Shown here piece after piece: positions 1,759-30,913 of a stretch of DNA of 64,000 nucleotides; position 1 is the stretch's first letter, and every line of letters begins with the position of its first letter. The stretch covers positions 415,277-479,276 of the forward strand of contig MEUD01000001.1 in NCBI GenBank assembly GCA_001771575.1, given 5' to 3'. The DNA comes from a candidate division WOR-1 bacterium RIFOXYB2_FULL_45_9 (lineage in GTDB: Bacteria > Margulisbacteria > WOR-1 > O2-12-FULL-45-9 > XYB2-FULL-48-7). The translations under genes were made by a program, and so were the position numbers. A model generated the notes under the pieces. The model saw only the letters and a program-made list of their open reading frames with translations. It did no database searches and was not told the DNA's origin.

Positions 1759-1772
1759 GGCTATCCTCTTTT

Positions 1773-3524: not shown

Positions 3525-3526
3525 CT

Positions 3527-3817
3527 TTAGTCCTCCTTTTTATCATTCAAAAATACATTCAACCCTTTGCGCAGGCCGCCGACAAAAGCAGCAAGCGTCG
3601 TGTTCTTGTTCCACTTCTTTTTGGAGCCACCCAGCGCGCCAAAAATCATTGTCACCGCGTCCAGGAGCGAAGTGATCGCCAGGACCTTTTCCCTAATCTC
3701 CCCGCTCATCTTGCGGACGTCGGAGAGGATCATGATCCCCTGAATGACCGCGACGGTCAAGGCCAGAAGAAGCAAAACCCCGGAAAACACCAAGACGTTG
3801 ATCAAAATGTCGTGCAT
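3527..3817 (-). CDS. DUF948-like membrane protein (YtxG-like)
   Basis: 96 aa with an N-terminal TM helix and a helical body. It sits between two YtxH-like genes, as in Firmicutes ytxGHJ stress operons. Confidence 0.35.
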   Translation of the reverse strand: MHDILINVLVFSGVLLLLALTVAVIQGIMILSDVRKMSGEIREKVLAITSLLDAVTMIFGALGGSKKKWNKNTTLAAFVGGLRKGLNVFLNDKKED

Positions 3818-3820
3818 TTT

Positions 3821-4051
3821 TTATCCTCCTTCATGATCTTCTTTGATCTTTTCCGCTTCATCCAGGCCAACGCTAAAGGCTTCCGCGAACCGGTCAAGCA
3901 CCTCACCCAGATTGAATTCATGGATCTTTTGCTTGATCAATTCCCTGCTTTTTTCGCCAATCGATGGGGAGAGCATTAGTCCAAGAACGCCGCCGATCAA
4001 TCCACCGGCCAATAGACCGACCAGTAAATTATTGTCGTCCTGATCAGGCAT
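3821..4051 (-). CDS. YtxH-like small membrane/stress protein
   Basis: 76 aa with a Gly-rich TM segment (LLAGGLIGGVLGLMLSP) followed by SIGEKSRELI. Confidence 0.4.
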   Translation of the reverse strand: MPDQDDNNLLVGLLAGGLIGGVLGLMLSPSIGEKSRELIKQKIHEFNLGEVLDRFAEAFSVGLDEAEKIKEDHEGG

Positions 4052-6293: not shown

Positions 6294-7132
6294 AATTCAA
6301 TATCCTTTATCTTACACAGTTCGCAAAGGGCCTGTTTTTCCTGTTCCGGGGTCGGCGGCGAGCCGTGAAAACTTAATGGAGCCGCTTCCATAAAGCTGAC
6401 CCCTTTTCCTTTGATCGTGTCGGCAATAATGACCGTCGGTTTTCCTTTGGTCTTTTTAGCGTTATCGATCGCTTCGATCAGCGCTTTGATCGAATGGCCA
6501 TCACAGCGGATCACGTGCCAGTTAAACGACCGCCACTTGTCTTCAAACGGAGCAAGGGTCTTGATGTCTTCGATCTTTCCATCGATCTGGTATTTATTGT
6601 GGTCGACGATCGCGGTGAGATTGTCGAGCTTGCGGTGCCCGGAGGTCATGGCCGCTTCCCAAACCTGCCCCTCCTGGCATTCGCCGTCCCCCAGCAAGCA
6701 GTAGACGCGATAATCATTTTTGTCGAGCCGGCCGGCCAGCGCCATCCCGTTGGCGGCAGAGAGCCCCTGGCCAAGGGAACCGGTCGACATCTCGATCCCG
6801 GGAAGCGAGAGCATATCAATATGTCCTTGCAAAGAACTGCCGATCTGGCGCAGGGTCTTTAAATATTTAGCTGGAAAGTAACCGGCCTCCGCCAGGGCGG
6901 AATAGAGGATCGGCGCGGCGTGGCCTTTACTCATCACAAAACGATCCCGCTCTGTCCAGCCGGGATCTTTGGGATTGTGTCTTAATGCATGGAAATATAG
7001 GACCGTAATAATATCAGCGGCGGAGAGCGATCCTCCGGGGTGGCCCGAAGCGGCGGCGCAGGTCATCGCAATGACGTGCTGTCTTAATTTTGACGCAATT
7101 TCCTGCAGTTTTTTTATCTCGTCGCCGCTCAT
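6290..7132 (-). CDS. transketolase, N-terminal (TPP-binding) subunit
   Basis: 280 aa with a TPP-binding GDG motif (LLGDGECQEG). The split-transketolase arrangement is shown by a 4-nt overlap with the downstream subunit. Confidence 0.85.
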   Translation of the reverse strand: MSGDEIKKLQEIASKLRQHVIAMTCAAASGHPGGSLSAADIITVLYFHALRHNPKDPGWTERDRFVMSKGHAAPILYSALAEAGYFPAKYLKTLRQIGSSLQGHIDMLSLPGIEMSTGSLGQGLSAANGMALAGRLDKNDYRVYCLLGDGECQEGQVWEAAMTSGHRKLDNLTAIVDHNKYQIDGKIEDIKTLAPFEDKWRSFNWHVIRCDGHSIKALIEAIDNAKKTKGKPTVIIADTIKGKGVSFMEAAPLSFHGSPPTPEQEKQALCELCKIKDIEL

Positions 7133-7136
7133 TTTT

Positions 7137-8000
7137 CTATTCTACCATAATCTTAATCTCGGGCTCAAGATTGACCTTATACTTCTCTTTGACGATCTTT
7201 TGCGCTTTGGTCATCAGCTTCAAAACGTCACGGCTCGACGCTTCCCCCAGGTTGACGATAAAGTTGGCATGCTTTTCCGATATCTGGGCGTCGCCGCAGC
7301 GCAATCCCTTGGCGCCTGATTCCTGCAGCAGCTTCCCGGCGATTTTCTTCTGCTGGTTTTTAAACACGCTCCCCGCGTTGGGAATACCGAGCGGCTGTTT
7401 CAGTTTTCTTTGAGCCAGATGCTCATTGATCTTTTCGCGCATCGCTTTGACCTGCCCGGTCTTCAATTTAAAGGCCGTTTCCACCACGATCAAACCTTTT
7501 TTCTCGATCGAACTTTTTCGATAGCCAAACCCGAGCTCTTTTCTGGTCAAAACAACTTCCTGGCCATTTTTATCCAGCGCCTTAACATGGTCGATTGAGC
7601 CGGAGATCTCTTTCCCCCACGCCCCGGCGTTCATGACGATCGCCCCGCCAACCGTACCCGGGATCCCGGCCAGAAATTCCAGTCCGGTCAAACGCCGTTT
7701 TAGGGCGACCTGAACCAATTGAGGAAGATAAACCCCCGCTTCGGCATACAATAAGTTGTCTTTAAAATAGATCCTCTTCAATCCATTGGCCAGCTTAATA
7801 ACTAACCCGCGATATCCCTTATCCAGGGCCAGCACGTTCGTTCCCGCCCCAAGAATGGCGAATTTTAGTTTTTTCTCTCGCGCGTATTGGATCGCTTCCG
7901 CAAGTTCCTCTTGATTTTTTGGCACGCAAAAATATCTGGCCGGCCCGCCGATCCGAAACGATGTATGTTTTTTTAACGGCTCGTCTTTAAGGTATTTCAT
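7137..8000 (-). CDS. murB: UDP-N-acetylenolpyruvoylglucosamine reductase
   Basis: 287 aa with the FAD-binding PCMH-type N-terminus (RIGGPARYF...ILGAGTN) typical of MurB. Confidence 0.85.
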   Translation of the reverse strand: MKYLKDEPLKKHTSFRIGGPARYFCVPKNQEELAEAIQYAREKKLKFAILGAGTNVLALDKGYRGLVIKLANGLKRIYFKDNLLYAEAGVYLPQLVQVALKRRLTGLEFLAGIPGTVGGAIVMNAGAWGKEISGSIDHVKALDKNGQEVVLTRKELGFGYRKSSIEKKGLIVVETAFKLKTGQVKAMREKINEHLAQRKLKQPLGIPNAGSVFKNQQKKIAGKLLQESGAKGLRCGDAQISEKHANFIVNLGEASSRDVLKLMTKAQKIVKEKYKVNLEPEIKIMVE

Positions 8001-8003
8001 GCC

Positions 8004-9413
8004 TCACCCACCATCCCGATGTACATCGGGATGGTCCCTCATCTTCAGCCTAAGCAAAATCTCTTTCGCTACGGTATAAATATCTCCCGCGCCGACCGTC
8101 AAGAGCATGTCCCCGGGCTTAAGTTCTTTCATTAGCTGTTCCACGATCTTTTCTTTTTTGGGTATATACGAAGCTTTTTCCTTATCGAGCAGATTGGCGA
8201 TCGTCTTGCCGGAGATACCCGGGATCGGCTTTTCCGACGCGGCATAGATATCGGAAATAATAACCCGGTCCGCGTCAGAAAACGCGGTCCCGAACCGGTC
8301 CTTGAGCAGTTTGGTCCTGGTATAGCGATGCGGCTGAAAAACACAAACGATCTTCCGCTTCGGCCAGCCGGCCCGGGCGGCGGAAAGGGTCGCTTTGATC
8401 TCGGTCGGGTGATGGGCGTAATCATCAATGATCATGATGTCGGATTGCTCTCCGACTATCGAGAAGCGGCGCCGCGCTCCGACAAAAGTCTGCAGGGCGG
8501 AGACCATCAGGGAAAAATCGATCCCAAACTCAAAGCCGATAGCGAAAACCGCCAGACTGTTTAAGACGTTCTGCCAGCCGGGAACCGACAATCCGACTTC
8601 GCCGACCTCTTCCCCGTTCTTAAGCAATATATAGCTGGAGTTAAATTTGGAATGTTTCAGGTTCTTCGCGCTGTATTCCATTCCCGGATCAAGCCCATAG
8701 GTAATAAATCTTTTCCCCGCCCGCTCCATCAGCCGGCGATTGTTCGGATCGGTCCCGTCGACCAAAATAAACCCGTTGGCAGGGACCCGGGAAGCAAATT
8801 CCTCAAAGGTCCTGAAAAGCTCTTCGGTATTGCCGAAGTGCTCCATGTGGTCCTCTTCAATGTTAGTGATGATCTCGATCGTGGGGGAAAGAAAAAGAAA
8901 AGAGCTGTCCGATTCGTCCGCTTCCGCGACGCAAAAGCCGCCGCTCCCCATTTTAGCGTTGCCGCCGACGTAATCCATGTCGCAGCCGATCAGGAAAGTC
9001 GGGTTCAGTTTGGCCGCGTCCAGGACCTTGGCGATCATCGCGGTCGTGGTCGTTTTGCCGTGCGTTCCGGCAACGGCGATACGGTTCTGGGAACGGGACA
9101 TGATCCAGGCAAGCATTTCGGCCCGCTTCAGGATCGGGATCCCTTTGGCCTGCCCCTCTTTTAGTTCCGGATTGTCAAAGCTGACCGCCGAAGAATAGAC
9201 CATCAGGTCGATCCCCCGGACATTGTCGGCATCGTGGCCGATCTGGATCTTGACCCCCATATCTTTGAGGCGAACGGTATTGGGGTTCTCTTTTACGTCG
9301 GAGCCGCTGACCTTAAAGCCCATTTCGTGCAGGATCTTGGCGATGCCGGAGACCCCGCAACCGCCGACCCCGACCAAATGGATATTTTTGATTTTATTAA
9401 AATCTAATGGCAT
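8004..9413 (-). CDS. murC: UDP-N-acetylmuramate--L-alanine ligase
   Basis: 469 aa Mur ligase with a P-loop (GTHGKTTTT) and the MurC N-terminal dinucleotide fold (VGVGGCGVSGIA). Confidence 0.9.
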   Translation of the reverse strand: MPLDFNKIKNIHLVGVGGCGVSGIAKILHEMGFKVSGSDVKENPNTVRLKDMGVKIQIGHDADNVRGIDLMVYSSAVSFDNPELKEGQAKGIPILKRAEMLAWIMSRSQNRIAVAGTHGKTTTTAMIAKVLDAAKLNPTFLIGCDMDYVGGNAKMGSGGFCVAEADESDSSFLFLSPTIEIITNIEEDHMEHFGNTEELFRTFEEFASRVPANGFILVDGTDPNNRRLMERAGKRFITYGLDPGMEYSAKNLKHSKFNSSYILLKNGEEVGEVGLSVPGWQNVLNSLAVFAIGFEFGIDFSLMVSALQTFVGARRRFSIVGEQSDIMIIDDYAHHPTEIKATLSAARAGWPKRKIVCVFQPHRYTRTKLLKDRFGTAFSDADRVIISDIYAASEKPIPGISGKTIANLLDKEKASYIPKKEKIVEQLMKELKPGDMLLTVGAGDIYTVAKEILLRLKMRDHPDVHRDGG

Positions 9414-10434
9414 TGATTATTTCTTGGGCCGCTTCCGGTCTGGCCAACCGGCGGCAAGCCTCTTTCATTTGTTTTAGATCAAGGGAATCGTTGACCAAAG
9501 AAGCGAATTTTTCCGGGGTCAGTTCGCCGTTCTTGACCAGCACCCCAGCTCCCGCCTCTTCCACGACCCGGGCGTTAAGGTCCTGATGGCCTTCGGCCGA
9601 ATATGGGAACGGAACCAGGACCATCGGCAAACCGCGGACCAAAAATTCAGCGATCGCCGTCGCCCCCGCCCGAGAGACCACCAGATCGGCCGCCGCAATA
9701 GCCTCGGCTATATTATACATGTATTCCACCGGTTTATAAAAAGGATATTCGCTTCTCTTTAAAAGAGGAAAATCGCGGCTCCCGATAATATGGACGATCT
9801 TTATCCCCTCTTTGATCAGAGGCAAAGCGGCGATCACTGCTTGATTAACGCTCCTCGCCCCCTGGCTCCCCCCAACGACCAGGACCATTTTGTCGCCTGG
9901 TTCACAGCCAAAGAGAGCGCGGCTGGCCTCCCGGTCGGCTAAAGCGATCTCTCCCCTGACCGGGTTGCCGGTGACGATTCCTTGAGGCAAATACTCCCTG
10001 GAGCGGTCGAAAGAAAGAAAGACCTTTTTCGCCCAACGGGCAAAAAGCCTATTCGTCACCCCGGGCAAAACATTCTGTTCATGAAGATAGATCGGGATCG
10101 AAAGAAATTTAGCGGCCAGGACGACCGGCAGGCTGGCATACCCTCCAGTGGAAAGCAGAACATTGGGCCGCTCGCGCACCAGATAAGCCAGCGCCTGAAA
10201 AAAACCGATCAAAGAGATGAACGGGGCGGAGAGAGCCTTGTAAGAAAGCTTGCGCAAAAGGGCCCGCGACTTGATCAATTTGATCGGGAAGCCGGCTTTG
10301 GCGATCAACCCTTTTTCCAGCCCTTCTTCGCTCCCGATAAAAAGGACTTTATTTTCCGGGATCAACTCCCGGGCGACGGCGATCCCGGGATAGATATGCC
10401 CGCCGGTCCCGCCGGAAACTATGACGATCTTCAT
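9397..10434 (-). CDS. murG: undecaprenyldiphospho-muramoylpentapeptide beta-N-acetylglucosaminyltransferase
   Basis: 345 aa with N-terminal SGGTGGHIYP, a GT28 signature. Confidence 0.9.
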   Translation of the reverse strand: MKIVIVSGGTGGHIYPGIAVARELIPENKVLFIGSEEGLEKGLIAKAGFPIKLIKSRALLRKLSYKALSAPFISLIGFFQALAYLVRERPNVLLSTGGYASLPVVLAAKFLSIPIYLHEQNVLPGVTNRLFARWAKKVFLSFDRSREYLPQGIVTGNPVRGEIALADREASRALFGCEPGDKMVLVVGGSQGARSVNQAVIAALPLIKEGIKIVHIIGSRDFPLLKRSEYPFYKPVEYMYNIAEAIAAADLVVSRAGATAIAEFLVRGLPMVLVPFPYSAEGHQDLNARVVEEAGAGVLVKNGELTPEKFASLVNDSLDLKQMKEACRRLARPEAAQEIINAIRF

Positions 10435-11522
10435 GCGGCCCCTTTCCTGGAAATATTTAAGATCACGCCGACCGCGAAAAGGTTGATGATCGTTGCCGTC
10501 CCACCGTAGCTAAGGAACGGCAAGGGGATCCCGGTCGTTGGGGCCAGACCGACCACCACCATAATATTGATCAGCGCCTGGGTCGACAGCCAGGCGACCA
10601 GGCCGGTCGCCAAAAGGCATTTGAACGGGTCTTTCGCTCCCAGCGCGATCAGAAAGCCGCGGTGAACAAAAAGGACAAAGATGGCGATGGCCAAAACTGC
10701 ACCGATAAAGCCGGTCTCCTCGCAATAAATGGCAAAGACAAAATCGGTGAACTGCTGGGGGAGATAAAAAAACTTCTGCCTTGAAGCGCCAAGCCCCAGG
10801 CCCATAATGCCACCCGACCCGACGGCCAAAAGGGACTGGATGATCTGGAAACCGATCCCCTGCGGGTCCTGCCAGGGGTCAAAAAAAGCGACAAACCTTT
10901 TTAAGCGGTACGGCGTGGTCACTCCCAGCACGATCACTCCGGCAACCGCCGCCAACCCAAGGAAAACGAACTGCGAATACTCCATCCCGGCGACAAAAAG
11001 CATGGCGAAGACTGACCCGGCCAGCGCCAGGACCGTCCCCAGGTCGGGCTGTTTAATGATCAGGGCGGCGACGAAAGCGAAGATCAATAAAGCCGGCAGG
11101 ACCCCTCTCATAAAATTGCCGATGTCCCCTTTTCTTTCCGACAGGAGCCTGGCCAGATAAACGGTCAAAGTAAATTTAATCAGCTCCGAAGGCTGAAAAG
11201 ATATTATCCCCAGATCGATCCACCTTGAAGCGCCGCTGATGTTATGCCCGATCCCGGGAACAAAGACCAGGACCAAAAAGAAGAGAGTGACCAAAAACAG
11301 ATGGAAAGAATAATTTTTCAGCTTGACCAGATCGAGACGAAATCCATAGTAACCGGCGCCGACCCCCAGGACCAGGAAAAAGAGATGGCGTTTAATGAAA
11401 TAGAGCATGTCACCATGCTTTAGCCCCATGGTGGGACTGGCGGAAAAAATCGTCGCCGTGCCGATCGCGGAGAGGAGGATGACCGCCAGCAAAAACCAAT
11501 AGTCTATTTTAAGTTTTGGCAT
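10431..11522 (-). CDS. ftsW: SEDS-family peptidoglycan polymerase/cell division protein (FtsW/RodA)
   Basis: 363 aa polytopic membrane protein with SEDS motifs, located between murD and murG. Confidence 0.85.
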   Translation of the reverse strand: MPKLKIDYWFLLAVILLSAIGTATIFSASPTMGLKHGDMLYFIKRHLFFLVLGVGAGYYGFRLDLVKLKNYSFHLFLVTLFFLVLVFVPGIGHNISGASRWIDLGIISFQPSELIKFTLTVYLARLLSERKGDIGNFMRGVLPALLIFAFVAALIIKQPDLGTVLALAGSVFAMLFVAGMEYSQFVFLGLAAVAGVIVLGVTTPYRLKRFVAFFDPWQDPQGIGFQIIQSLLAVGSGGIMGLGLGASRQKFFYLPQQFTDFVFAIYCEETGFIGAVLAIAIFVLFVHRGFLIALGAKDPFKCLLATGLVAWLSTQALINIMVVVGLAPTTGIPLPFLSYGGTATIINLFAVGVILNISRKGAA

Positions 11523-21143: not shown

Positions 21144-21216
21144 TCCCCGGTAGCGCAGTGGTAGCGCAGGTGACTGTTAATCACTTGGTCGTAGGTTCGA
21201 ATCCTACCCGGGGAGC
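21144..21216 (+). tRNA. tRNA-Asn (anticodon GTT)
   Basis: Manual cloverleaf: acceptor TCCCCGG/CCGGGGA, D-stem GCGC/GCGC, anticodon stem GGTGA/TCACT with loop CTGTTAA, T-arm GTAGG-TTCGAAT-CCTAC and discriminator G. Confidence 0.8.
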
Positions 21217-21693: not shown

Positions 21694-22671
21694 TTAATCC
21701 TTTAATCTCTTTTTTGACACGGCACAAGCATCTTTTAATGATTTACAAGTGAATAAAGTATCCAACATGCACTTTAATCTCCCATTTGACCATATTTTGC
21801 CAATTGGCAATTCCTTTCTTGGCTCAAATGGTTCTCCCAAATATAATAAATAGTGATTTTTAACTTTACCTCTTTTTATCTCTGGGATTCGGCTATGCAT
21901 ATCAGCAACAATCTCATAAGATTTCACATAATGGATCGACTGCAATTTACCATCATATCTAAAACCCATATAATTGAGAGGTATTTTGGGCCAATTCTTT
22001 TCTGCTGGATAAAAGTAGAGGCGTTTTTTATTAATAACATCTCTCCAGGATATTTTTGACCATTTTGGTGTTTTATTCGATAGTGATACAACATAGACCC
22101 AATTAGATTCCTTGTTTTCCATTTGGACCTCCTCAAGCAAATATTTTTGCAGCTCTGATAAAAGATACTTTTCCTTATTTGATGCCTCATGGTAAATATA
22201 ATTAATTGTTTTAATCACATCATGCCAAGAAATTGACTTTATAGGAACCCCGCGAATTGATCGTTTTAAATTACCATTAAAATATTCTTCCGTGCAATCA
22301 CTGAGAACCAGAAACATTCTCTTGGTTCTCTTATAGCCGCCAAACCTCTCCCTGTATTTTTTGAGTTGGTCCAGGGTTGGCAAAGACCACCCCTTTTTTG
22401 CTTCTATGATACAAAAGAACCTATTATCAACAACAATTTCAATGTCCGTTATCCCCTTTTCCCCATGTTTTTGAAGACGAATAACAATATTATTGTATTT
22501 CATATCTCTGTTATACATTCGCTTGATTAAGGCTTTCACCAATCTTGGGACCCTTGCCATTGTATATCCCAAACTGTATGTTAAATCATTTTCACTAACG
22601 CCTAAAAGTTCAAATACGCTTTCAATTTGATCATCATTAATAGATATTACTGTTGATGGAGTTTTATTCAT
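21694..22671 (-). CDS. PD-(D/E)xK-like putative nuclease with an uncharacterised C-terminal domain, translationally coupled to hsdR
   Basis: 325 aa. The N-terminal segment GITDIEIVVDN...CIIEAKKGW fits the restriction-endonuclease-fold D...D/E-x-K motif. A 4-nt overlap with the hsdR stop and AT-rich codon usage link it to the island. Confidence 0.45.
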   Translation of the reverse strand: MNKTPSTVISINDDQIESVFELLGVSENDLTYSLGYTMARVPRLVKALIKRMYNRDMKYNNIVIRLQKHGEKGITDIEIVVDNRFFCIIEAKKGWSLPTLDQLKKYRERFGGYKRTKRMFLVLSDCTEEYFNGNLKRSIRGVPIKSISWHDVIKTINYIYHEASNKEKYLLSELQKYLLEEVQMENKESNWVYVVSLSNKTPKWSKISWRDVINKKRLYFYPAEKNWPKIPLNYMGFRYDGKLQSIHYVKSYEIVADMHSRIPEIKRGKVKNHYLLYLGEPFEPRKELPIGKIWSNGRLKCMLDTLFTCKSLKDACAVSKKRLKD

Positions 22672-25600
22672 GAGGCATACACGCTCTTTTCTGGGCCAGA
22701 ATACGCATCATAAACATGCTCATAAACTAACTCGCACTTCTGACTATAAACTGGCTTTGTGTATTTCTCGGGCAAATGGTCAAATACTTCATTTATCATG
22801 ACTTTGACCGCGGCCCTTGCCTCTTGTTTCTTGCGCCAATCGAGCACGAGCTTCTCTTGCTTTAGCTTTTCCAGCAGCTCTTTGGCCACTGCCTTGACTA
22901 CCCCCTCTTCTTTCTTGGTCAACTGCATGTCTGGCCTAGTTAAAATATCAAATACTGCTAATTCTTCTTCGGAAAGCCCTTCTGCGATAGTCCTCTTTTC
23001 TTCTTCGTTTAGCTGCTGGGCAAATTCGGTTAAACGTCTAAAGAATTCGTCAACGTTCATACTGCCGGCGTTATATTCATCGATCAATTTCTGAAACTTA
23101 TCCTGGAAGTCCAATCTGGTCCGGTTAAACCTGATCATTGTTCCTAAACGACGCTCAATCATCCCTTTCAGTTTTTCAACTTCAATATGCTTTCTCCCCT
23201 TTTCAAATTTGGCGCGTAAAGTCTCGAAGTCGATCTGGCTAAGATCGTAGATTCGGCTTTGCTCGGGCTTTTCGGCAATTACATAGCCTTCCGTGGAAAT
23301 CGATTCATCAAGAAGCTTATCGATCTCTTTCATCACTGCTGAAATGTCAGGCGGCGGCAATAACGATCGTATTTTGTTAGCGATAACTACGAATAATATC
23401 GCTAGTGGCGCTACCTCATGGGCAATTTTGTCCGGTAAGATAGCTTTGAATAAGCCATTAATCCGGGCAGCCATAACTAGGTAGGTTTTCTTCTGCTCTT
23501 CGGCTGCGATTATCATGTCCACCGCGTTATCAAGCAAGCCAACCTTAGCGAATCCTTCTGCGGCTAGGATTGCTTCAACATTAATCCCAAGATTCGAGCA
23601 GAATTCCGTTGTTTCTTGCAGTTGTTTCTTGAGAATCTCCACCAGCTCCGCCTTTTCGACAATTGGCGGCTCACCCGCTCCAGGGGTCGGCGCGTAGATC
23701 GCCAAAGCCTTTTGCAGGCTTTGGAAAACACCGACATAATCAACAATTAAACCGCTGACCTTGTCCTTAAAGACCCGGTTAGCCCGGGCGATAGTCTGCA
23801 TTAAAGTATGGTTGCGCATCGGCTTATCAAGATAGATGGTTGAACAGCTCGGCACATCGAAGCCGGTCATCCACATGGCACAGACAAAGACGATCCGGAA
23901 GGGATCGTTTGGATCCTTGAATTTTGTGGCTAAGTCTTCACTTACTATCCGGCGACGGTGCGGCTCGATCTCGACCCCCTTCTCCCGCATCTGGGCGATC
24001 TCATTTTGCGAAGAAGAGACCACTACAGCCATATCTGTCTCTTTAACATAGTTGATTAATTTTTCTAATGCGGCCCTCTCCTCTTCCGCAACCCCGCTCA
24101 ACTGCTTTTCCAACTCCTGCAAATATTCTTGCTGATATTTACGCACCTTATCGTACATTTTGACTGCCGTAACCTTATCAATCGCCACAACCATAGCCTT
24201 CCCTTTAAAGCCGCGGTTAAAGAAATGGCTTACTATATCTTTAGCAACTGTTTCCAGGCGATCGTTACGAGTAATAATGTGATATTGTCTGGCGAACTCT
24301 TGCTCCAACCGGGCTTGCTGGCGCTCATCCAGCTCAGCCGCTTCAACAATAGCGGCCATCTCATCATTTAAGCTTTCGTTTGTGAGCTGGACCTCGGGGA
24401 TTCGGTTCTCGTAATAGAGTGGCACGGTTGCCTTATCATCGATCGATTGCTTAAAGTTATAAACACTGACATATTCACCAAACACATCCTTGGTCTTCTC
24501 TTCTCCAACGATTAAAGGTGTACCGGTAAAAGCGATAAAAGAGGCATTAGGCAACGCTTGGCGCATGTTAAAGGCGAGCGTGTCATACTGGCTCCGGTGC
24601 GCCTCGTCCGTGATAACGATAATATCCGACCGCTCTGACACAACCCCCTGGAAGTTGAACTTATGGATCAGAGTAAAGATATAACGATGATTCTGACCCA
24701 ATAACTGCCGGAGATGGTCACCTGATTCGGCATGGATCTCTTGAGCAGTTATGGCGCCTGAATTGGCAAAGTTACCATAGATTTGCTCATCAAGCTCTTT
24801 GCGGTCAGTCACAATAACAAAGGTCCAATTGCCAGGGATCTTACGCAGGACTTTTTGGGCGAAAAAGATCATGGAAACGCTCTTGCCGCTCCCTTGAGTA
24901 TGCCAAAACACCCCCAGCTTGCCCTGTTTTTCCCTAATATCCTTAAATCCCTTAATAACGTTGTTGACGCCCAGATATTGATGGTTTTTTCCGATTAATT
25001 TAATTAGTCCGCCGCGAGATTGCATATAAGCGATATAGTTCTCAACGATATCAAGGAAGTTAGCCTTCTGACAGATCCCGCGGATCATCGTATCGAGGGA
25101 TATAACGCCTTGTTCGCCTTCACTATTGATCTTCTTCCAATCGGCAAAATGCTCCCACTCCGCAGTTATACTGCCAACTTTACTTTCGCTCCCATTGGAA
25201 AGGATAATAACGGCGTTATACCAGAATAGCTGGGGAATCGTGTTTTTATAATCGGTCAGGTTATCAATAAACGCGTTTTCTACCCGCTTATGTGCCGCTT
25301 TAAGTTCAATAAATAGTAAAGGGATACCATTTACAAACCCGACCAGATCAGCCCTTTTGGTATACATTTCACCGGTGACCCAGAATTGGGAAGCAAGGAA
25401 AAAGTCATTATTTTCGGACTTATCCCAATCGATAACTTTAACCGTTTCGGTCGTCTCTTCCTCTCGGCCTGTGGCGGGCATTGTAACGGGGACGCCATCC
25501 TTGAGCAGTTGGTAAACTTCCCGGTTGGCATTAACCAAGCTCATCGCACTCCGATCGCGCGTTATTTCTTCAATGGCCAGATCAATTGCTTCTTCAGTCA

Positions 25601-25796
25601 ATCCGGGGTTTAACTTATTCAAGGCGGGTCGTAGCCTTGAAACAAGAACAACTTCTCCCCGATTCTCCCGGCCCATAGTACTGCCGCTCGCCCGTTCGAA
25701 TTCTAGATAACAGTTAGCAGCTTGCCAGTTAAGATCTGTTAACAACCTGATTGTTGGTTGTTCAATTAATCTATCTTCCGAATAATGCGTTGTCAT
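22668..25796 (-). CDS. hsdR: type I restriction enzyme R subunit (helicase/endonuclease)
   Basis: 1042 aa with an HsdR N-terminus, Walker A (TQGSGKS), DEAH box (VITDEAHRSQ) and SF2 helicase C-terminal motifs. Confidence 0.9.
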   Translation of the reverse strand: MTTHYSEDRLIEQPTIRLLTDLNWQAANCYLEFERASGSTMGRENRGEVVLVSRLRPALNKLNPGLTEEAIDLAIEEITRDRSAMSLVNANREVYQLLKDGVPVTMPATGREEETTETVKVIDWDKSENNDFFLASQFWVTGEMYTKRADLVGFVNGIPLLFIELKAAHKRVENAFIDNLTDYKNTIPQLFWYNAVIILSNGSESKVGSITAEWEHFADWKKINSEGEQGVISLDTMIRGICQKANFLDIVENYIAYMQSRGGLIKLIGKNHQYLGVNNVIKGFKDIREKQGKLGVFWHTQGSGKSVSMIFFAQKVLRKIPGNWTFVIVTDRKELDEQIYGNFANSGAITAQEIHAESGDHLRQLLGQNHRYIFTLIHKFNFQGVVSERSDIIVITDEAHRSQYDTLAFNMRQALPNASFIAFTGTPLIVGEEKTKDVFGEYVSVYNFKQSIDDKATVPLYYENRIPEVQLTNESLNDEMAAIVEAAELDERQQARLEQEFARQYHIITRNDRLETVAKDIVSHFFNRGFKGKAMVVAIDKVTAVKMYDKVRKYQQEYLQELEKQLSGVAEEERAALEKLINYVKETDMAVVVSSSQNEIAQMREKGVEIEPHRRRIVSEDLATKFKDPNDPFRIVFVCAMWMTGFDVPSCSTIYLDKPMRNHTLMQTIARANRVFKDKVSGLIVDYVGVFQSLQKALAIYAPTPGAGEPPIVEKAELVEILKKQLQETTEFCSNLGINVEAILAAEGFAKVGLLDNAVDMIIAAEEQKKTYLVMAARINGLFKAILPDKIAHEVAPLAILFVVIANKIRSLLPPPDISAVMKEIDKLLDESISTEGYVIAEKPEQSRIYDLSQIDFETLRAKFEKGRKHIEVEKLKGMIERRLGTMIRFNRTRLDFQDKFQKLIDEYNAGSMNVDEFFRRLTEFAQQLNEEEKRTIAEGLSEEELAVFDILTRPDMQLTKKEEGVVKAVAKELLEKLKQEKLVLDWRKKQEARAAVKVMINEVFDHLPEKYTKPVYSQKCELVYEHVYDAYSGPEKSVYAS

Positions 25797-27112
25797 AATT
25801 GATTTACCATGTCATAGGAGGCTACAACATCCTTAATCTTATCTTCGCTGATTTTCTTTTCTCTTGCAAGCCTCATAACCCTCAAATGATACTGATTAAA
25901 TAATATTTTCTTCGATAATCTATTTAACCTGGCGATATATCTCACCCTTTGTCTTTTGTTTAACAAATCAAATATCTTGCCAAGATAATAACCACCTGCA
26001 TTCATTATGAATTTTTCATCAAGCACATTTGCAATTACCTTAGTTCGATATTTTGGGGCGAGCCCTGCGATATTGCAATTTATCATTCTTTTTAATATTG
26101 GGCTTCGTTTAAAGTCGACTCTTTTCCTAACTTTTTTCCTATACGCATCGTATGCCTTCTCAATGTCTTTGTGCTTTTTAGGGTTTTCCAATAGCTTAAA
26201 TATATCAAACGACCAATAATCGAAGAATTGCCTAGAAGTAAATAATTTTGCCTTACTAGCGTTAAGATTCAATCCTATCATTGCCAGCTTTTTTGATGCC
26301 AGAAACATGATCTCTTTTGCATCTTTTTCATTTTTTGATGCTATTATTTGATCGTCAGCATATCTTAGATACTTAGATTTCCTTTCTTCGCATATATCGT
26401 ACATATACTTGTCATATTCCTGAAGATAATAATTTGCTAATATTCTAGAACAATCCCCAACCTCATCTTGTGGTAATCCCGCACTCTGCTTCTCATAAAA
26501 CATATACTTTTTATTCCAATGCGATAAGAAATAAAATAGCAAATTAACATATTTAGTTTTCCGCTTGTCTACGGCTTCCCTTATTAATGCTTCCAATCTG
26601 TCCAGGCGTATTGAATCATAGAAGTTTGCAATATCAAATATAAAATAGTATTCATGATCTGATTTTGCATAGAGATTGTAAGCTCTCTTTTGATAATCAG
26701 TCCATGCACGTTTCCATGCAAATGAGTTGTAACTGTAATCTGGCATAGACACAATTTCGTCGTTATTTTCAATCTTCCGTATTTTTCCGCCTAATTTCCA
26801 GCCCCCATAGGTGCCCTTTACTCTATTTGCAGCTATTTCATCCTCAAGACTCTTAATACAATAATAGTAGACACAGTAGTCCTCTCTAGTAAGAGCGGGA
26901 ATAAAACGAACAACTAAATTCTCTTTATGTGATACAACAAATGTCCTGGGGGGAGATGGGGCATAAATCATTTTGTTAATCTTACCGACTAATTCCTTCA
27001 AGAATGAAATTCTATCGGGCGTCGAATCAGCGAATGGGCAATCGGTTTTATTGTGAATGTGCTTCCAGAATCTTTGCCCAACCACTTCGATAAAGTCGTT
27101 ATCTTTTAGCAT
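25793..27112 (-). CDS. reverse transcriptase (defence-associated, Abi/UG-like, non-retron context) embedded between hsdS and hsdR
   Basis: 439 aa with RT motif A (YYFIFDIANFYDSI), motif B (GLPQDEVGDCSRILANYYL), motif C (LRYADDQII) and a motif D/E region (IGLNLNASKAKLF). A basic helical C-terminal extension of about 140 aa follows. ATGA overlap with hsdR and a 20-nt gap to hsdS are consistent with translational coupling. Confidence 0.75.
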   Translation of the reverse strand: MLKDNDFIEVVGQRFWKHIHNKTDCPFADSTPDRISFLKELVGKINKMIYAPSPPRTFVVSHKENLVVRFIPALTREDYCVYYYCIKSLEDEIAANRVKGTYGGWKLGGKIRKIENNDEIVSMPDYSYNSFAWKRAWTDYQKRAYNLYAKSDHEYYFIFDIANFYDSIRLDRLEALIREAVDKRKTKYVNLLFYFLSHWNKKYMFYEKQSAGLPQDEVGDCSRILANYYLQEYDKYMYDICEERKSKYLRYADDQIIASKNEKDAKEIMFLASKKLAMIGLNLNASKAKLFTSRQFFDYWSFDIFKLLENPKKHKDIEKAYDAYRKKVRKRVDFKRSPILKRMINCNIAGLAPKYRTKVIANVLDEKFIMNAGGYYLGKIFDLLNKRQRVRYIARLNRLSKKILFNQYHLRVMRLAREKKISEDKIKDVVASYDMVNQL

Positions 27113-27132
27113 ATATATTCTTCTCTATCATA

Positions 27133-28296
27133 TTAACGATCATATATCTCTCTCCCTACCTCCCCGCCAATCAACTTCGGTAAAAGTAAATCGCGGGTTT
27201 GAACCAGAATTTTGTTCATGTTGACCAGGTTAGCCATCATTTGAAATGATATTGAAATCTTACCCTCAAAGTCATCTAATATTTCTCCAGGAATATCAAC
27301 GACTTCTAATCGCATTAGATCCTTTGGATAAACATGTGGTTGCGCCGCTCCTCTTTGAAAGTTGGTTACCTCATTTTGTCTATTTTTCAGCAACAAATAG
27401 AAATAATATAAGTATTTTGTGGTATTTCTATCAATAAAAGAGCAATCTGATGCCCAGATATCCTCATAATATATGTTTACATAGCCCGAGTTCGCTCCCG
27501 AAGCGCTAATCGTTATGACAGGAGCCTTTGTATTTGCCTTATTATGAAAATATGCCGGGCTTAACCCTCCAGCCACCACAGGAACTGCTCCCTCAATTAT
27601 TATCTCCCTGGTTATACTCTTGCCCTTTGCAATATCCACCTTTTCTCCTAATGTAATTACCTCCCACTTCTCCGGTATCTTCCCCAGCTTCGAATCAACC
27701 ATGTTCACCTTCTCATGCCCCGGAAAGCGGAAATTGACAAACCATTCGCTATAGATCATCTGCGCCATTTGTTCGATGATCTTTATCCGGCGGTTGTTGT
27801 TTTCGATCAGGTCGTCGTAGGCGGAAAGGATGGAGGCTATGCGGCGTTGTGTTGGGAGATCGGGGAAATTGATAACTAGGTCCTTAATTGATGCGATATC
27901 CGCACGTTGCCTACCAGATGCGCCAGCCATACTCTTTTCAGCGGGGCTTCTTATGGTTTTCGTAGTTGATAAATAATAAATATAATCTGGGTCAGAAATC
28001 GCTGATTTTGCTCTAAATACAAAGAATTCTGTCGAACCAAAAGCGGGGCTCCCTCTATATTGTGCAATTTTTCCATTCTCAAGACATGGTGTTATTCGGG
28101 CAAATAATGTGTCCCTGTCCTCAAATTTTGACCCGCCGCCTTTTAACTGTTTCTCTCCACTTGGGCTAACATACTTTGTTCCGGGTTGAATAGCCTCCAT
28201 CATAACAAATGGGTATTCCCCACCACGTTCCAGCTTTACTTTTGGATGAATTTCAACGCAATCCTCAAATCTTACTTTTCGCCAATTATTCTTCAT
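27133..28296 (-). CDS. hsdS: type I restriction-modification specificity subunit
   Basis: 387 aa with two target-recognition domains separated by a central conserved helix. It overlaps the upstream gene by 4 nt. Confidence 0.8.
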   Translation of the reverse strand: MKNNWRKVRFEDCVEIHPKVKLERGGEYPFVMMEAIQPGTKYVSPSGEKQLKGGGSKFEDRDTLFARITPCLENGKIAQYRGSPAFGSTEFFVFRAKSAISDPDYIYYLSTTKTIRSPAEKSMAGASGRQRADIASIKDLVINFPDLPTQRRIASILSAYDDLIENNNRRIKIIEQMAQMIYSEWFVNFRFPGHEKVNMVDSKLGKIPEKWEVITLGEKVDIAKGKSITREIIIEGAVPVVAGGLSPAYFHNKANTKAPVITISASGANSGYVNIYYEDIWASDCSFIDRNTTKYLYYFYLLLKNRQNEVTNFQRGAAQPHVYPKDLMRLEVVDIPGEILDDFEGKISISFQMMANLVNMNKILVQTRDLLLPKLIGGEVGREIYDR

Positions 28297-29315
28297 GGCC
28301 TTTGCTTAATATAATTATTAATCACTTCGTATACAGCGTTTGTATCTTTTCCTTCCAATCTTCCAATGTACCCTATTGGCATATGCTTAAACATTGCCTC
28401 TGTACCCTCCTTGATCATTTCAGATTTCGCTTCTGGCTCTGGATTAGTTGCAATATAATCCTGAAGGGTTTGCGCCACATTCCTTCTATGTGTGTTAATG
28501 GCATACATATTTGCATAAACGTTGTAATTTTTGGAAGCAAAACCCAGCCCATATGATACAACGGAAAGTAATGCCAACTTTGCTAATCCATATTCTAGAG
28601 TGAAAAAAGATTCTGGGCCAAAAACGATTATTCCAATACTTTTCATCATAAGAATACCAAAATACACGATAAAGTTAAAAGCGATGAGCCCTATTAAGAA
28701 CCAGAATGTTTTATCTCTATTGCCCAACCATTTCTCCATGCTCGCACGGTCTTCATTTGCCTGCTTTTCAAAATATTTGGCGAGAGTCACAGAGGCAATC
28801 TCGCCATGAGTAGTTTCGATTTCAGCCTTTTTTTGCTTCAAATTCTCTAGCTCATTTTGTAATTTTAGGGCTAATTCCTTGTAAACTATTTCCGCCTGCA
28901 CCGCCGCTTTTTGTTGTTTTTGCAGCTCTTCTTCATCCTTACTTTTTAATGCTGCTTCCTGTCTTAAATATACAAGGTTCGTTTTGGTTTGCTGAATCGT
29001 TTCGTTAGAATAACGCTCTATCTCTCCTTCCAACTGATCATGCAAAGGCTTGGGATTGGGATGGTTTAAATTAAAGCTATCGATTCTTTTTATATAATCA
29101 ACAAATCGTGTTTTTTTATTATCTATATCATCAATTTCGGGCTTCGATAAGATTGTTTTATACTGGAGTTCAGCAAATTCCCCAAATAAGCCCTGTAATC
29201 TAATCAAATATTCGGCGCTTTTTTGAAATTTTAATGCGCCATAATCATCCTTCATGGTTATCTTATTTATATCTATTTTACCTATTGAATCAATATCTAT
29301 ATTTTGTTCAGCCAT
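28293..29315 (-). CDS. coiled-coil protein with a C-terminal 2-TM hairpin, inserted between hsdM and hsdS (candidate abortive-infection/effector module)
   Basis: 340 aa. The N-terminal roughly 200 aa are strongly heptad/charged (QKQQKAAVQAEIVYKELALKLQNELENLKQKKAEIE). Two hydrophobic helices follow (FWFLIGLIAFNFIVYFGILMM and LAKLALLSVVSYGLGFA). A strong SD (GGGAGGG) precedes the start. Confidence 0.5.
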   Translation of the reverse strand: MAEQNIDIDSIGKIDINKITMKDDYGALKFQKSAEYLIRLQGLFGEFAELQYKTILSKPEIDDIDNKKTRFVDYIKRIDSFNLNHPNPKPLHDQLEGEIERYSNETIQQTKTNLVYLRQEAALKSKDEEELQKQQKAAVQAEIVYKELALKLQNELENLKQKKAEIETTHGEIASVTLAKYFEKQANEDRASMEKWLGNRDKTFWFLIGLIAFNFIVYFGILMMKSIGIIVFGPESFFTLEYGLAKLALLSVVSYGLGFASKNYNVYANMYAINTHRRNVAQTLQDYIATNPEPEAKSEMIKEGTEAMFKHMPIGYIGRLEGKDTNAVYEVINNYIKQRP

Positions 29316-29350
29316 TTTGCCCTCCCATTCATACTATTCGCCAGTGGGCC

Positions 29351-30853
29351 TTATAATCCCTTTTTTAATATAAGGCCGATATTATGCGATATTTTCTTTT
29401 CCAGTAGGTGCGATTCAGCATTTAGTTTTTCGAGCTCACCATTCAATCCTATGATTTTTTCCTTGAAGTCGTATTCTTCAGTCGGCCTTTCGGCGACTCC
29501 AACATATCTCCCCGGATTTAAGCTCCACCCCTGCTCTTCGATCTCCTTTAAGGTTGCCACCTTACAAAGGCCCGGCTTATCCTTTAACTTCCCTTGCCGG
29601 TATTGTTTGACCAGCCCGGCCAACATTTCAATCTGTTCCGGCTTAAAATCACGCAAAGCCCGGTTTATCTGATTAAAGGTGTTTCGGGCATCGATAAACA
29701 AGACTTTATTCTTAAGCGCCTTATCCTTCTCCTTATCAAAGAACCAGAGAGTCACTGGGAGTGTGACAGTATAAAAGAAATTAGACCCAACAGAGACGAT
29801 CACATCAACATGGCCCGATTTAATAAGCTGTTTGCGTATTTCCATTTCAGACGAACGGGCATCAGCCGCAGCATTCGACATAACAAAACCTGCCCGCCCC
29901 TTACTATTCAACGCACTGTAAAAGATCTGGATCCAGAGATAATTGGCATTATCTACGGTTGGTAGGCCAAACGGGAACCTTGGGTCGCCCTTAAGACTTT
30001 CAATGTCTACCCGATTAACATTAAAGGGAGGATTAGCCATCACATAATCGAACTTGCCGACACTTTTATGAATATCTTCTTTATAAGTGTTAGACTCACG
30101 GATATCACCTTCCAAGCCGTGAACCGCCAGATTCATTTTGCACAGCCTTACCGTCTCTTTGGTCTTTTCCTGCCCGTAAATGGATATTTCAGCGCTCGGC
30201 TTCTTCTTCCGCTCTTCGACAAAGCGTGCACTCTGGACAAACATACCGCCCGAGCCGCATGCTGGGTCTAAAATCTTGCCATGGAACGGCTCAATTATCT
30301 CAACGATTAGTTTAACAATAGATATTGGGGTATAGAACTCGCCCCCCTTCTGCCCTTCCGTCATCGCAAATTCACCCAAGAAATACTCATATATCCGGCC
30401 CAGCGTATCCCCATCATGCTCCATCGGGATTGAAGCCATTAATTTAATCAGCTCAATTAAGACCTTTTTATCAAGCTGGTTGTAGTTCCTGGGCAAAACG
30501 TCTTTTAAAGATGGGTTTTCTTCCTCGATCGCCTTCATCGCGGCATTGATAGCCTTGCCTATATCGCTACCTTCCTTTAGTTTTGACAAATAGTCAAACC
30601 TGGCAATTTCCGGCAAATACATTACCCCTTGCGCTTGATAATCTGCCTTGCCAATTGTGCGCCGGCCGGTCCCTTTGCTCGCTAGCTCTTTCTCGACAAT
30701 AGTAAATTTATGGTCAGCGTATCTCAAAAAGATAAGACCCAAGACAGGCGTGGAATATTCAGATGATTTCAGGTGCGAGTTAGCGCGCAGTTCGTCGGCA
30801 GCATTCCAGAGTCCTTTTTCAAGATCGGCTAGATTGTTTTCAGGTTCAGGCAT
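29351..30853 (-). CDS. hsdM: type I restriction-modification DNA methyltransferase subunit
   Basis: About 500 aa N6-adenine methyltransferase with NPPF (VMANPPFNV) and a SAM-binding motif. The start is assigned to the second Met (MPEPENN), which is preceded by AAGGAGG. The ORF-track start at 30883 lies in the promoter palindrome. Confidence 0.9.
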
Positions 30854-30865
30854 TTTGGGCCTCCT

Positions 30866-30913
30866 TATTCTAATTACAGGCATTTAATTAGAATATAGAT
30901 ATTTATATTCTAA
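30866..30913. promoter_or_regulatory. candidate operator/promoter upstream of hsdM: perfect 10-bp inverted repeat TTAGAATATA-N6-TATATTCTAA plus a third half-site
   Basis: Read directly from the sequence at 30888-30913. An additional TATTCTAAT half-site sits at 30866-30874, just upstream of the SD. Confidence 0.4.

Follow-up and report, generated by a model that had tools for sequence, protein, structure and literature searches.

The window, a stretch of 64,000 nucleotides, carries on its minus strand a Type I restriction-modification (R-M) operon in which a gene for a 340-aa protein, here termed X340, lies between hsdM and hsdS. Read in the direction of transcription, the genes and signals are as follows.

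29351-30883, minus strand: hsdM, Type I methyltransferase (Pfam N6_Mtase, 4.4e-90; HsdM_N, 8e-23; NPPF motif intact)
29320-29326, minus strand: Shine-Dalgarno sequence GGGAGGG of X340, read from the sequence
28293-29315, minus strand: X340, two-TM hairpin protein (ATG ORF, 49 homologues, superfamily search, AF2 models)
28293-28295, minus strand: stop codon of the X340 ORF
27133-28296, minus strand: hsdS (Pfam Methylase_S, 8.8e-25), with its start in the ATGA overlap with the X340 stop
25793-27112, minus strand: UG13b-type reverse transcriptase (RT) between hsdS and hsdR (PADLOC RT_UG13b, 2.6e-149; Pfam RVT_1; GC 0.348)
22668-25796, minus strand: hsdR (Pfam HSDR_N, SWI2_SNF2 and T1RH-like_C; Walker A, DEAH and PD-ExK motifs intact)
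21694-22671, minus strand: P325, a 325-aa protein, ATGA-coupled to the hsdR stop (weak PDDEXK_4 match, E 0.024)

An earlier, sequence-only reading had placed a 340-aa ORF at 28293-29315 between hsdM and hsdS, with a strong Shine-Dalgarno sequence of its own and a stop overlapping the hsdS start. All of this was borne out: the ORF is a minus-strand ATG ORF of 340 aa with GGGAGGG 4 nt before the ATG, an HsdM (N6_Mtase) is encoded upstream and an HsdS (Methylase_S) downstream, and the ATGA overlap is seen at 28293-28296. It is a real gene, with 49 full-length homologues at 33-84% identity. The further argument that the hsdS-coupled position speaks for functional integration proved weak, since the same ATGA overlap occurs at the RT/hsdR and hsdR/P325 junctions; X340 (GC 0.36, against 0.45 for the hsd genes), the RT and P325 each have a GC content some 10 points lower than that of the hsd core; X340 occurs in three R-M classes, contexts that are intermixed on the X tree; and copies also exist without any R-M system. 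Given its AT-rich composition, the other inserted genes and the ATGA overlaps at other junctions, X340 therefore looks like an acquired cassette, as do the RT and P325. The UG13b RT is a second accessory cassette, its joint action with X340 being only a candidate, and P325 is a third, likewise AT-rich, for which a structure-library search returned no PDB relative. A scan of the operon for promoters and terminators gave no signal above that of shuffled sequences, and the 35 nt that separate hsdM from X340 showed no terminator-like site. The sole Rfam match was the adjacent tRNA-Asn, and no att-like repeat pairing this tRNA with the far boundary of the operon was found.

X340 is an inner-membrane protein in which a helical N-domain is followed by a stalk, TM1, an outside loop, TM2 and a conserved cytoplasmic juxtamembrane region.

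29055-29315, minus strand: N-domain, residues 1-87, cytoplasmic and helical, with helices 31-49 and 58-79 (AF2)
28710-29054, minus strand: cytoplasmic stalk helix, residues 88-202, with a hinge at about 125 and conserved YLRQEA and HGEIA motifs
28641-28709, minus strand: TM1, residues 203-225, continuous with the stalk helix, with conserved N214 and Y218 (hydropathy, alignment)
28596-28640, minus strand: extracytoplasmic loop, residues 226-240, short, variable in length and without positive charge
28530-28595, minus strand: TM2, residues 241-262, moderately hydrophobic and highly conserved, with Y242, K246 and F259
28296-28529, minus strand: C-terminal region, residues 263-340, conserved and cytoplasmic (alignments, hhalign against the proteobacterial clade)

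The two closely spaced hydrophobic helices noticed earlier were recovered by hydropathy analysis, with family-mean Kyte-Doolittle values of 2.0 for TM1 (about residues 203-225) and 1.0 for TM2 (about residues 241-262; peak 19-residue window 1.6). The pair is flanked by K/R-rich segments and its connecting loop bears no positive charge, which indicates an N-in/C-in hairpin. In the AF2 model, built on a deep alignment (pLDDT 92.7), the protein is all-helical, the stalk helix (residues 88-227) runs on into TM1, and the conserved helix after TM2 extends to about residue 288. A heptad coiled coil of about 200 residues, as first proposed, was thus an overstatement, the model consisting here of the N-domain and the stalk helix, although a clear heptad does exist at about residues 125-170; only in that stretch are 6 of 8 a/d positions hydrophobic, and the 3.5-residue periodicity over residues 88-200 was matched or exceeded in 108 of 2000 shuffles. 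The supposed short amphipathic tail comprises about 80 residues and is, together with TM2, the best-conserved part of the protein: conservation is 0.70-0.73 for TM2 and the C-terminal juxtamembrane part compared with 0.52 for the N-domain, and the alignments show a signature N274-x-H276-R277-x-N279-V-A281-x-T283, plus F309 and G315. That TM2 and the juxtamembrane helix are the best conserved argues against a passive anchor.

X340 is a member of a large unnamed family of proteins of about 340 aa, the superfamily comprising 3141, 1618 and 93 clusters (50% identity) at E<=1e-3, 1e-10 and 1e-30, respectively. The X340 subfamily and a proteobacterial clade are homologous over their full length (hhalign probability 99.4%, E 5e-22). 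For X340 itself, scans of Pfam, NCBIfam and PADLOC (v2.0.0) gave nothing significant, whether transposase, housekeeping, NTPase or nuclease family, and no significant structural relative was found in the PDB. A homologue search with a diverse alignment recovered the close subfamily again and nothing else. No match was found in phage and plasmid collections and no homologue in IMG/VR, one structural match in BFVD being the sole exception on the viral side. No significant match to a known pore-former, holin, SLATT or Abi family was found; NNH7, DUF6161, AbiZ and retron_Ec48_2TM gave borderline matches only (32, 37 and 146 relatives scanned), which were not taken as membership, and matches to LeoBC, LmuB, JetC and PbeC among the scanned relatives were regarded as coiled-coil noise.

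Lactococcal AbiZ, which Durmaz and Klaenhammer in 2007 reportedly found to increase membrane permeability and advance lysis, resembles X340 in being a single-gene protein with two predicted TM helices (PADLOC PDLC02354). The AbiZ profile does not match X340 itself but has weak, co-linear matches in the C-terminal half of two distant relatives, P0149 (residues 132-329 on profile positions 211-396 of 398, E 1.4e-4) and, in the same register, P0160 (E 6e-4). Only four of 146 superfamily members match this profile, none better than E 1e-4, and the coiled-coil profiles LeoBC, LmuB and JetC match superfamily members as often or more; homology between X340 and AbiZ is, on these alignments, unproven. 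DUF6161 (PF19658, positions 84-213 of 216) aligns co-linearly with P0188 over its TM hairpin and C-terminal region at 22.1 bits, the gathering threshold being 27, and 4 of 120 proteobacterial relatives carry a precomputed DUF6161 annotation. A language model has singled out DUF6161 as a possible defence family. NNH7 (PF22738, about positions 110-213 of 225) is a borderline match to residues 55-155 or so in four of 32 close relatives, of which P0012 just passes the cut-off (27.8 against 27 bits) and the other three fall below it. X340 matches neither of these two families and most relatives stay under the gathering thresholds; moreover, NNH7 is by definition the N-terminal domain of NACHT NTPases, whereas X340 has no NACHT.

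Kinship with SLATT effectors, as suggested by the sequence-only reading, fared poorly. X340 has no Pfam SLATT match (SLATT_1-6 or fungal, E<=0.1), and for 32 close and 37 diverse relatives (69 in all) SLATT is absent from the lists of the 25 most-matched families, which could miss a match in one or two members. A Foldseek search of BFVD returned four SLATT-annotated viral proteins, all non-significant (E 1.6-5.2; query-normalised TM-score 0.22-0.28). Both SLATT and X340 have two TM helices and a conserved cytoplasmic helix, a topology that is generic rather than diagnostic, and both are associated with conflict systems. Unlike SLATT, however, X340 has a 200-residue N-terminal helical region and lacks SMODS, SLOG, CBASS or SLATT-type RT partners. 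No nucleotide-signalling partner genes were seen beside X, whose neighbours encode methyltransferases, S subunits and Res. Only in this window does an RT lie close to X, on the far side of hsdS; L021 shows a weak RT-like match on the other strand, at a distance of about 6 kb. Membership of X340 in SLATT is, as far as these comparisons reach, not supported.

About 30 of the 47 subfamily loci (64%) lie inside R-M operons, the X gene standing there between R-M subunit genes and itself matching no transposase or housekeeping family, so that the general idea of the initial description, an accessory protein in the membrane with ties to a defence operon, is supported. Three operon types are represented: Type I; an M+S form resembling Type I, with an HSDR_N_2+N6_Mtase gene (L004, L023, L029, L030, L036); and Type III, with the order mod-X-(AAA_15)-res (L021, L032-34, L044). 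An hsdS-like gene follows X directly in 26 of the 47 loci (median gap 3 nt); 23 loci have an N6-methyltransferase gene upstream of X, and 13 contain hsdR. Inside these operons X is therefore co-transcribed, and often translationally coupled, with restriction genes. Across the 47 loci no extra partner gene is consistently linked to X beyond the M, S, R, Mod and Res genes, and known defence cassettes (AbiEi/AbiEii, AAA_15, PIN, UG13b RT) occupy further slots of these operons. The X gene of this subfamily behaves as a mobile accessory cassette with a preference for R-M operons, usually located immediately 5' of hsdS or, in Type III operons, in the gap between mod and res. For the majority of genes found inside Type I R-M, BREX or DISARM systems, a defence role has been proposed (10.1101/2024.01.29.577857).

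About 12 loci have no R-M system, and several of their X genes are found in or beside hrcA-grpE-dnaK-dnaJ, in the orders hrcA-grpE-...-X-dnaK (L002), hrcA-...-X-12 bp-dnaK (L014), X-...-dnaK (L045) and dnaK-dnaJ-secD-secF-X (L060). A further copy adjoins rpsO (L054), and one distant relative has an ordinary chromosomal context in Flavobacteriales. A housekeeping placement had been named beforehand as the outcome that would count against a defence role; the orphan copies at hrcA-grpE-dnaK-dnaJ touch on it in part.

Several described systems resemble this arrangement. In Ronin from E. coli ECOR55, the membrane effector RonA is coupled to HsdM and HsdS; HsdMS suppresses the toxicity of RonA, and ArdA, Ocr and Aop1 trigger it, while PrrC is released by Stp (bioRxiv 10.1101/2023.04.06.535777). 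Like X340, RonA is a membrane-inserted protein encoded tightly beside hsdM and hsdS, and the proposed logic, a membrane effector backing up restriction, may be shared. RonA, compared here by its description, has 61 aa and one TM helix, in contrast to the 340 aa, N-domain, stalk, two TM helices and conserved C-terminal region of X340; Ronin lacks hsdR and acts as a decoy, whereas the operon in the window is complete; and the X340 family, unlike Ronin, also occurs in Type III operons and alone. PrrC, which is almost exclusively R-M-embedded (10.1101/2024.01.29.577857), is likewise an accessory abortive-infection gene inside a Type I operon (the EcoprrI locus), but it is a soluble ABC-ATPase/nuclease, whereas X340 is a membrane protein with an all-helical model and no NTPase or nuclease motif. 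With defence genes embedded in R-M operons in general, such as TgvAB of V. cholerae VPI-2 (PMC11411939) and the PADLOC HEC/PDC candidates (10.1101/2024.01.29.577857), X340 shares its place as an accessory cassette between the subunit genes of a Type I operon whose other slots carry further cassettes. X340 differs from these in belonging to an undescribed membrane-protein family that no PADLOC v2.0.0 model, including PDC and HEC, matches. By analogy, Ronin and PrrC would be best read as functional analogues of X340 as a backup defence effector.

A role for X340 as a phage-defence accessory is plausible, and we tentatively infer a candidate membrane-acting effector of the abortive-infection type that forms a second, backup layer behind restriction; that it is part of the restriction enzyme is not proven. 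The N-domain and stalk could serve as the sensing and oligomerising part, and a conformational change may be relayed along the unbroken helix of stalk and TM1 to the conserved TM hairpins, rearranging them, with membrane permeabilisation, depolarisation or mistimed lysis as the possible outcome once a phage evades or disables restriction. Such a protein would probably be self-triggered and not dependent on one particular R-M enzyme. Counting for an effector are the existence of a real, conserved gene with a large superfamily, the embedding in R-M operons, the defence cassettes in other slots, the mosaic composition, the topology, the high-confidence all-helical model, the conservation and the literature. 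So do some distant relatives that occur by themselves in small, variable islands with Hhe, HEPN, GIY-YIG, AbiH, TIR and HNH genes next to them. The loci without R-M, with their dnaK, rpsO and Flavobacteriales contexts, count against it, as does the absence of homologues from the phage and IMG/VR collections, which leaves no direct sign of an arms race, and the lack of any significant match to a known pore-former, holin, SLATT or Abi family; and a toxic pore acting alone, with no immunity partner in sight, would have to control itself tightly.

The same data bear on other readings. In a guard of the Ronin/PrrC type, HsdM2S (in Type III systems, Mod) would, as the methyltransferase core, keep X340 inactive until a phage anti-restriction protein (Ocr, ArdA or a Stp analogue) binds or disrupts the core, whereupon X340 would be released and the membrane damaged. 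The close junction of X with hsdS points this way, and the X-hsdS pair stays intact where cassettes separate X from hsdM (L016, L020, L025, L052, L053, L058); the degree of embedding is far above that usual for defence genes, PrrC being a comparable case (10.1101/2024.01.29.577857), and the control of RonA by HsdMS and of PrrC by Stp provides precedents. We nevertheless consider a guard unlikely, given that one subfamily is found with three unrelated R-M architectures and also alone, that an R-M-embedded and an orphan copy can be 72% identical (L012 and L014), that the intact motifs of hsdR exclude a decoy system here, and that the composition of X340 is foreign to the hsd core. A bolder and quite unlikely variant is that the X family represents a new fold of self-contained membrane executioner, recruited as a guard by several R-M classes, which would be held by or co-assembled with the methyltransferase core and depolarise the cell once restriction is disabled by phage anti-restriction proteins. 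If this were true, the Ronin/PrrC principle would no longer be confined to a decoy system of E. coli but would hold for complete Type I and Type III systems as well, above all in CPR and groundwater bacteria. Very unlikely, in our view, is a non-toxic tether or scaffold that would fix or enrich the R-M complex at the site of phage DNA entry on the inner membrane, with the stalk as a spacer. Its long cytoplasmic stalk on an N-in/C-in hairpin and its co-translation with the M and S subunits would suit such a role, and membrane association has been reported for EcoKI. Passive anchors, however, usually have poorly conserved TM segments, whereas in X340 conservation is highest in the TM hairpin and the juxtamembrane motif; neither the many orphan copies nor the huge stand-alone superfamily has an R-M partner that could be anchored; and a single protein would need to bind both Type I and Type III enzymes.

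It is also improbable that X340 has a housekeeping or envelope-stress function, for example with chaperones or Sec, and came into R-M operons by passive hitch-hiking. The orphan copies near dnaK (L002, L014, L045 and L060, the last also with secD-secF), the copy next to rpsO, the ordinary chromosomal context in Flavobacteriales and one automated JGI label, 'ElaB/YqjD/DUF883 membrane-anchored ribosome-binding protein', are consistent with such a function, and if X340 were non-defensive, the dnaK link would suggest a new envelope or stress function. In the dnaK-linked loci scanned, however, CIRCE heat-shock operators were found only before hrcA and none before X, and in L014 the hrcA-dnaK locus is broken up by opposite-strand ORFs. 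The dnaK-linked copies are close kin of R-M-embedded ones, and in L012 an entire R-M-X operon lies directly after dnaJ, with a serine-recombinase family nearby, an arrangement that fits an insertion hotspot or loss of R-M genes. The X gene is also patchily distributed and AT-rich in the window, and chance would hardly account for its frequent embedding in R-M operons.

Should X340 prove to be a defence effector, a name and a function would be gained for a very large uncharacterised family (>1,600 clusters at 50% identity), in which no tested member lies clearly above a Pfam threshold and which has no structural relative in the PDB. A membrane-acting second layer would then be added to classical Type I and Type III restriction, with a testable candidate for restriction backup in CPR and groundwater bacteria, and the recurrence of a single cassette in one slot across three R-M architectures, its junctions invariably tight or overlapping, would offer a useful case of module acquisition by defence operons.

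X is encoded on the minus strand within a restriction-modification (R-M) operon of the order hsdM - X - hsdS - RT - hsdR - P325, for which the following features were annotated:

29351-30883, minus strand, hsdM (NPPF motif intact; GC 0.447)
28293-29315, minus strand, X (340-aa ORF; GC 0.358)
27133-28296, minus strand, hsdS (start overlaps the X stop as ATGA; GC 0.418)
25793-27112, minus strand, reverse transcriptase (RT) of the UG13b class, between hsdS and hsdR (PADLOC 2.6e-149; YADD motif; GC 0.348)
22668-25796, minus strand, hsdR (Walker A, DEAH and PD-ExK motifs intact; GC 0.458)
21694-22671, minus strand, P325 (325-aa ORF; ATGA overlap with the hsdR stop; GC 0.337)
21144-21216, plus strand, tRNA-Asn(GTT), about 480 bp past the 3' end of the operon

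The intact hsdM and hsdR motifs indicate a complete R-M system, unlike a decoy of the Ronin kind. The ORF of X, its SD (GGGAGGG, in GGGAGGG-CAAA-ATG) and the ATGA overlap with hsdS were all read in the sequence as a preceding sequence-only reading had described them. That reading had also held that X cannot be deleted without disturbing hsdS translation and is therefore functionally integrated; this argument is not supported, since ATGA overlaps occur at three of the five gene junctions (X/hsdS, RT/hsdR and hsdR/P325) and are thus a trait of the operon, not of X. Against a GC content of 0.508 for the whole window, the operon (21694-30883) is a compositional mosaic, with the hsd core at 0.42-0.46 and X, RT and P325 at 0.34-0.36, and X, being AT-rich relative to the hsd core, looks like an acquired cassette. 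P325 gave only a weak PDDEXK_4 hit (E 0.024) and nothing in PADLOC, NCBIfam or PDB; it makes the third of the accessory cassettes. UG13b is a predicted defence RT class only (PMC9226505), and Rfam gave no RNA family near the gene. The tRNA-Asn gene could be the integration site of an island; a search for a direct repeat pairing it with the far operon boundary found none.

Kyte-Doolittle hydropathy, computed for X and for the alignment of its family, shows two hydrophobic stretches, near residues 203-225 (TM1) and 241-262 (TM2), which bears out the proposed two-TM hairpin. The short loop between them has no positive charge and both flanks are K/R-rich, pointing to an N-in/C-in topology. The AF2 model built on a deep alignment (pLDDT 92.7) predicts that residues 1-87 form a separate helical N-domain and that the stalk, a helix spanning 88-227 with a hinge near 125, is continuous with TM1. 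The observation made from the sequence was thus essentially right, with two details overstated. Of some 200 residues of heptad-like sequence, the long stalk helix stands, but the N-domain is separate and the heptad pattern is good at about 125-170 only; the 3.5-residue periodicity of the stalk was equalled or surpassed in 108 of 2000 shuffles. The "short" tail exists, but comprises about 80 residues and is, with TM2, the best-conserved part of the protein. Conservation peaks in TM2 and the juxtamembrane helix, and family alignments yield the C-terminal signature N274-x-H-R-x-N-V-A-x-T283, plus F309 and G315.

The recovery of 49 full-length homologues (33-84% identity) shows that X is a real gene. 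X had no significant match in Pfam, NCBIfam or PADLOC and is absent from PADLOC v2.0.0; the X-family profile matched no PDB sequence, and Foldseek with both X models found no PDB structure under E 1.5. An exhaustive HMM search returned 3141 clusters with a cut-off of E<=1e-3, of which 1618 reach 1e-10 and 93 reach 1e-30 (the best 150 mostly of about 340 aa, the remainder mostly shorter fragments), and a proteobacterial clade of 1430 proteins aligned with the X subfamily over 311 columns (hhalign probability 99.4%, E 5e-22), which places X in a large, unnamed superfamily. NNH7 matched four of 32 close relatives at residues 55-155 or so, one barely over the gathering score. DUF6161 gave a borderline match (22 bits) to the TM hairpin and C-terminal region of one relative and is annotated on four of 120 proteobacterial relatives. 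Borderline matches were also obtained with PADLOC AbiZ (4 of 146 members, best E 1e-4, two in consistent register) and retron_Ec48_2TM (2 of 37, E 0.004). Since the coiled-coil defence proteins LeoBC, LmuB and JetC match the superfamily as often as AbiZ or more often, much of this borderline signal is compositional. A relation of X to AbiZ, DUF6161 or NNH7 is a possible lead. The suggested SLATT kinship was not upheld: no SLATT profile was among the Pfam matches listed for X and its relatives, and SLATT models in BFVD gave only non-significant Foldseek E-values against the X model. On membership tests, X could not be assigned to SLATT, RonA or PrrC. With the X model as query, a single structural hit was significant, BFVD entry A0A8S5TVZ3 (Siphoviridae sp. 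ctQkj3, 300 aa, uncharacterised; Foldseek E 5e-6, 19% identity, 313 columns); it suggests at the level of predicted structure a relative borne by phage or prophage, although searches of phage and IMG/VR collections gave no sequence match.

For genomic context, 63 loci were fetched and neighbours classed by Pfam, BLAST against annotated references and PDB sequence search; the counts rest on 47 distinct loci that contain a gene of the X subfamily (L numbers denote loci in other genomes with such genes or relatives). R-M embedding was clear in about 30 of the 47. An hsdS-like gene lies immediately 3' of X in 26 (median gap 3 nt), an N6-adenine methyltransferase gene 5' of X in 23, and hsdR was found in 13; five loci have an alternative M gene (HSDR_N_2+N6_Mtase), then X, then S, and a Type III arrangement, mod-X-res or mod-X-AAA_15-res, occurs in L021, L032-34 and L044. 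X keeps its place directly before hsdS even where cassettes separate it from hsdM, the spacer genes being AbiEi/AbiEii (L052, L053), DUF3800 (L058) or unknown genes (L016, L020, L025). L052 and L053 hold the closest homologues of all (56% and 84% identity); in both, the insert that parts hsdM from X is an AbiEi/AbiEii(-WYL) toxin-antitoxin pair (1784-3836 and 1258-3479, respectively), and the X/hsdS overlap is retained. On a neighbour-joining tree of X, orphan copies and copies from Type I, Type I-like and Type III operons are interspersed, and no further gene family was consistently linked to X among neighbours across the 47 loci. A large serine recombinase family with Resolvase, Recombinase and Zn_ribbon_recom domains is found beside the R-M-X operon of four further loci (L001, at 6683-7984 on the minus strand; L012; L035; L042), which suggests that the operon is carried on an integrative element. 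Separately, a cassette encoding an AAA_15 (OLD/AbiEii-like) ATPase is found repeatedly, behind hsdS in Type I operons and behind X in those of Type III (L012, L040, L032, L033, L044), indicating that accessory slots are reused across R-M classes.

At about 12 loci no R-M system is seen, and several of these lie in or beside a heat-shock locus:

L002, X at 10001-11026, hrcA-grpE-...-X-dnaK
L014, X at 7560-8576, hrcA-...-X-12 bp-dnaK
L045, X-...-dnaK
L060, X at 6747-7829, grpE-dnaK-dnaJ-secD-secF-X
L006, GrpE-like gene about 2.4 kb 5' of X

In L012, the entire hsdM-X-hsdS-AAA_15-hsdR operon stands right behind dnaJ, and its X shares 72% identity with the orphan X of L014. At the heat-shock-linked loci, CIRCE operators were found before hrcA only and none before X. 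We read the dnaK-linked copies as an insertion hotspot or as R-M gene loss leaving X behind. A functional link of X to chaperones or envelope stress may exist; that X is a non-defence membrane or stress protein altogether is unlikely.

Our tentative preference is for X as an autonomous membrane-acting defence effector, a possible second layer in which the N-domain and stalk would sense a trigger and drive rearrangement of the hairpins. Autonomy is favoured by the mixed R-M classes, the orphan copies and a largely stand-alone superfamily. We give a lower probability to X being physically coupled, as a guard, to the methyltransferase core. A membrane tether of the R-M complex is quite unlikely, as a TM hairpin this highly conserved speaks against a passive anchor.

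A membrane effector linked to defence, the broader proposal, would be plausible and has precedents; the embedding of X in R-M operons of three classes is recurrent and tightly coupled. PrrC is the classical Abi gene embedded in Type I R-M (10.1101/2024.01.29.577857; 10.1101/2023.04.06.535777), TgvAB shows that independent defence systems can be embedded in Type I operons (PMC11411939), and Payne et al. proposed that the majority of genes embedded in R-M, BREX or DISARM are defence genes (10.1101/2024.01.29.577857). X resembles the latter as an R-M-embedded accessory gene, but belongs to a new protein family of different architecture that is not in PADLOC v2.0.0. The closest functional analogue would be Ronin, whose 61-aa single-TM effector RonA is kept masked by HsdMS until ArdA, Ocr or Aop1 releases it (10.1101/2023.04.06.535777); Ronin, however, is a decoy, whereas the hsdR of the X operon is intact.

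Distant relatives of X are stand-alone, some in small variable islands. On Vibrio tubiashii plasmid pFP31 (L046, record 185357-202292), one belongs to an array whose genes are short, lie on the same strand and are regularly spaced; the array also has Hhe, a HEPN-associated protein, a 5'-nucleotidase, GIY-YIG, AbiH and an AAA protein, and looks like a defence cassette array of integron type. Others occur as TIR_2-X-Trypsin_2 in Lysobacter, flanked by two aconitase genes and accompanied by an HNH gene in Thalassolituus, adjoining IS110 fragments in Cellvibrio, near Fic and ArdA genes on Piscirickettsia plasmids, and in an ordinary chromosomal context in Flavobacteriales.
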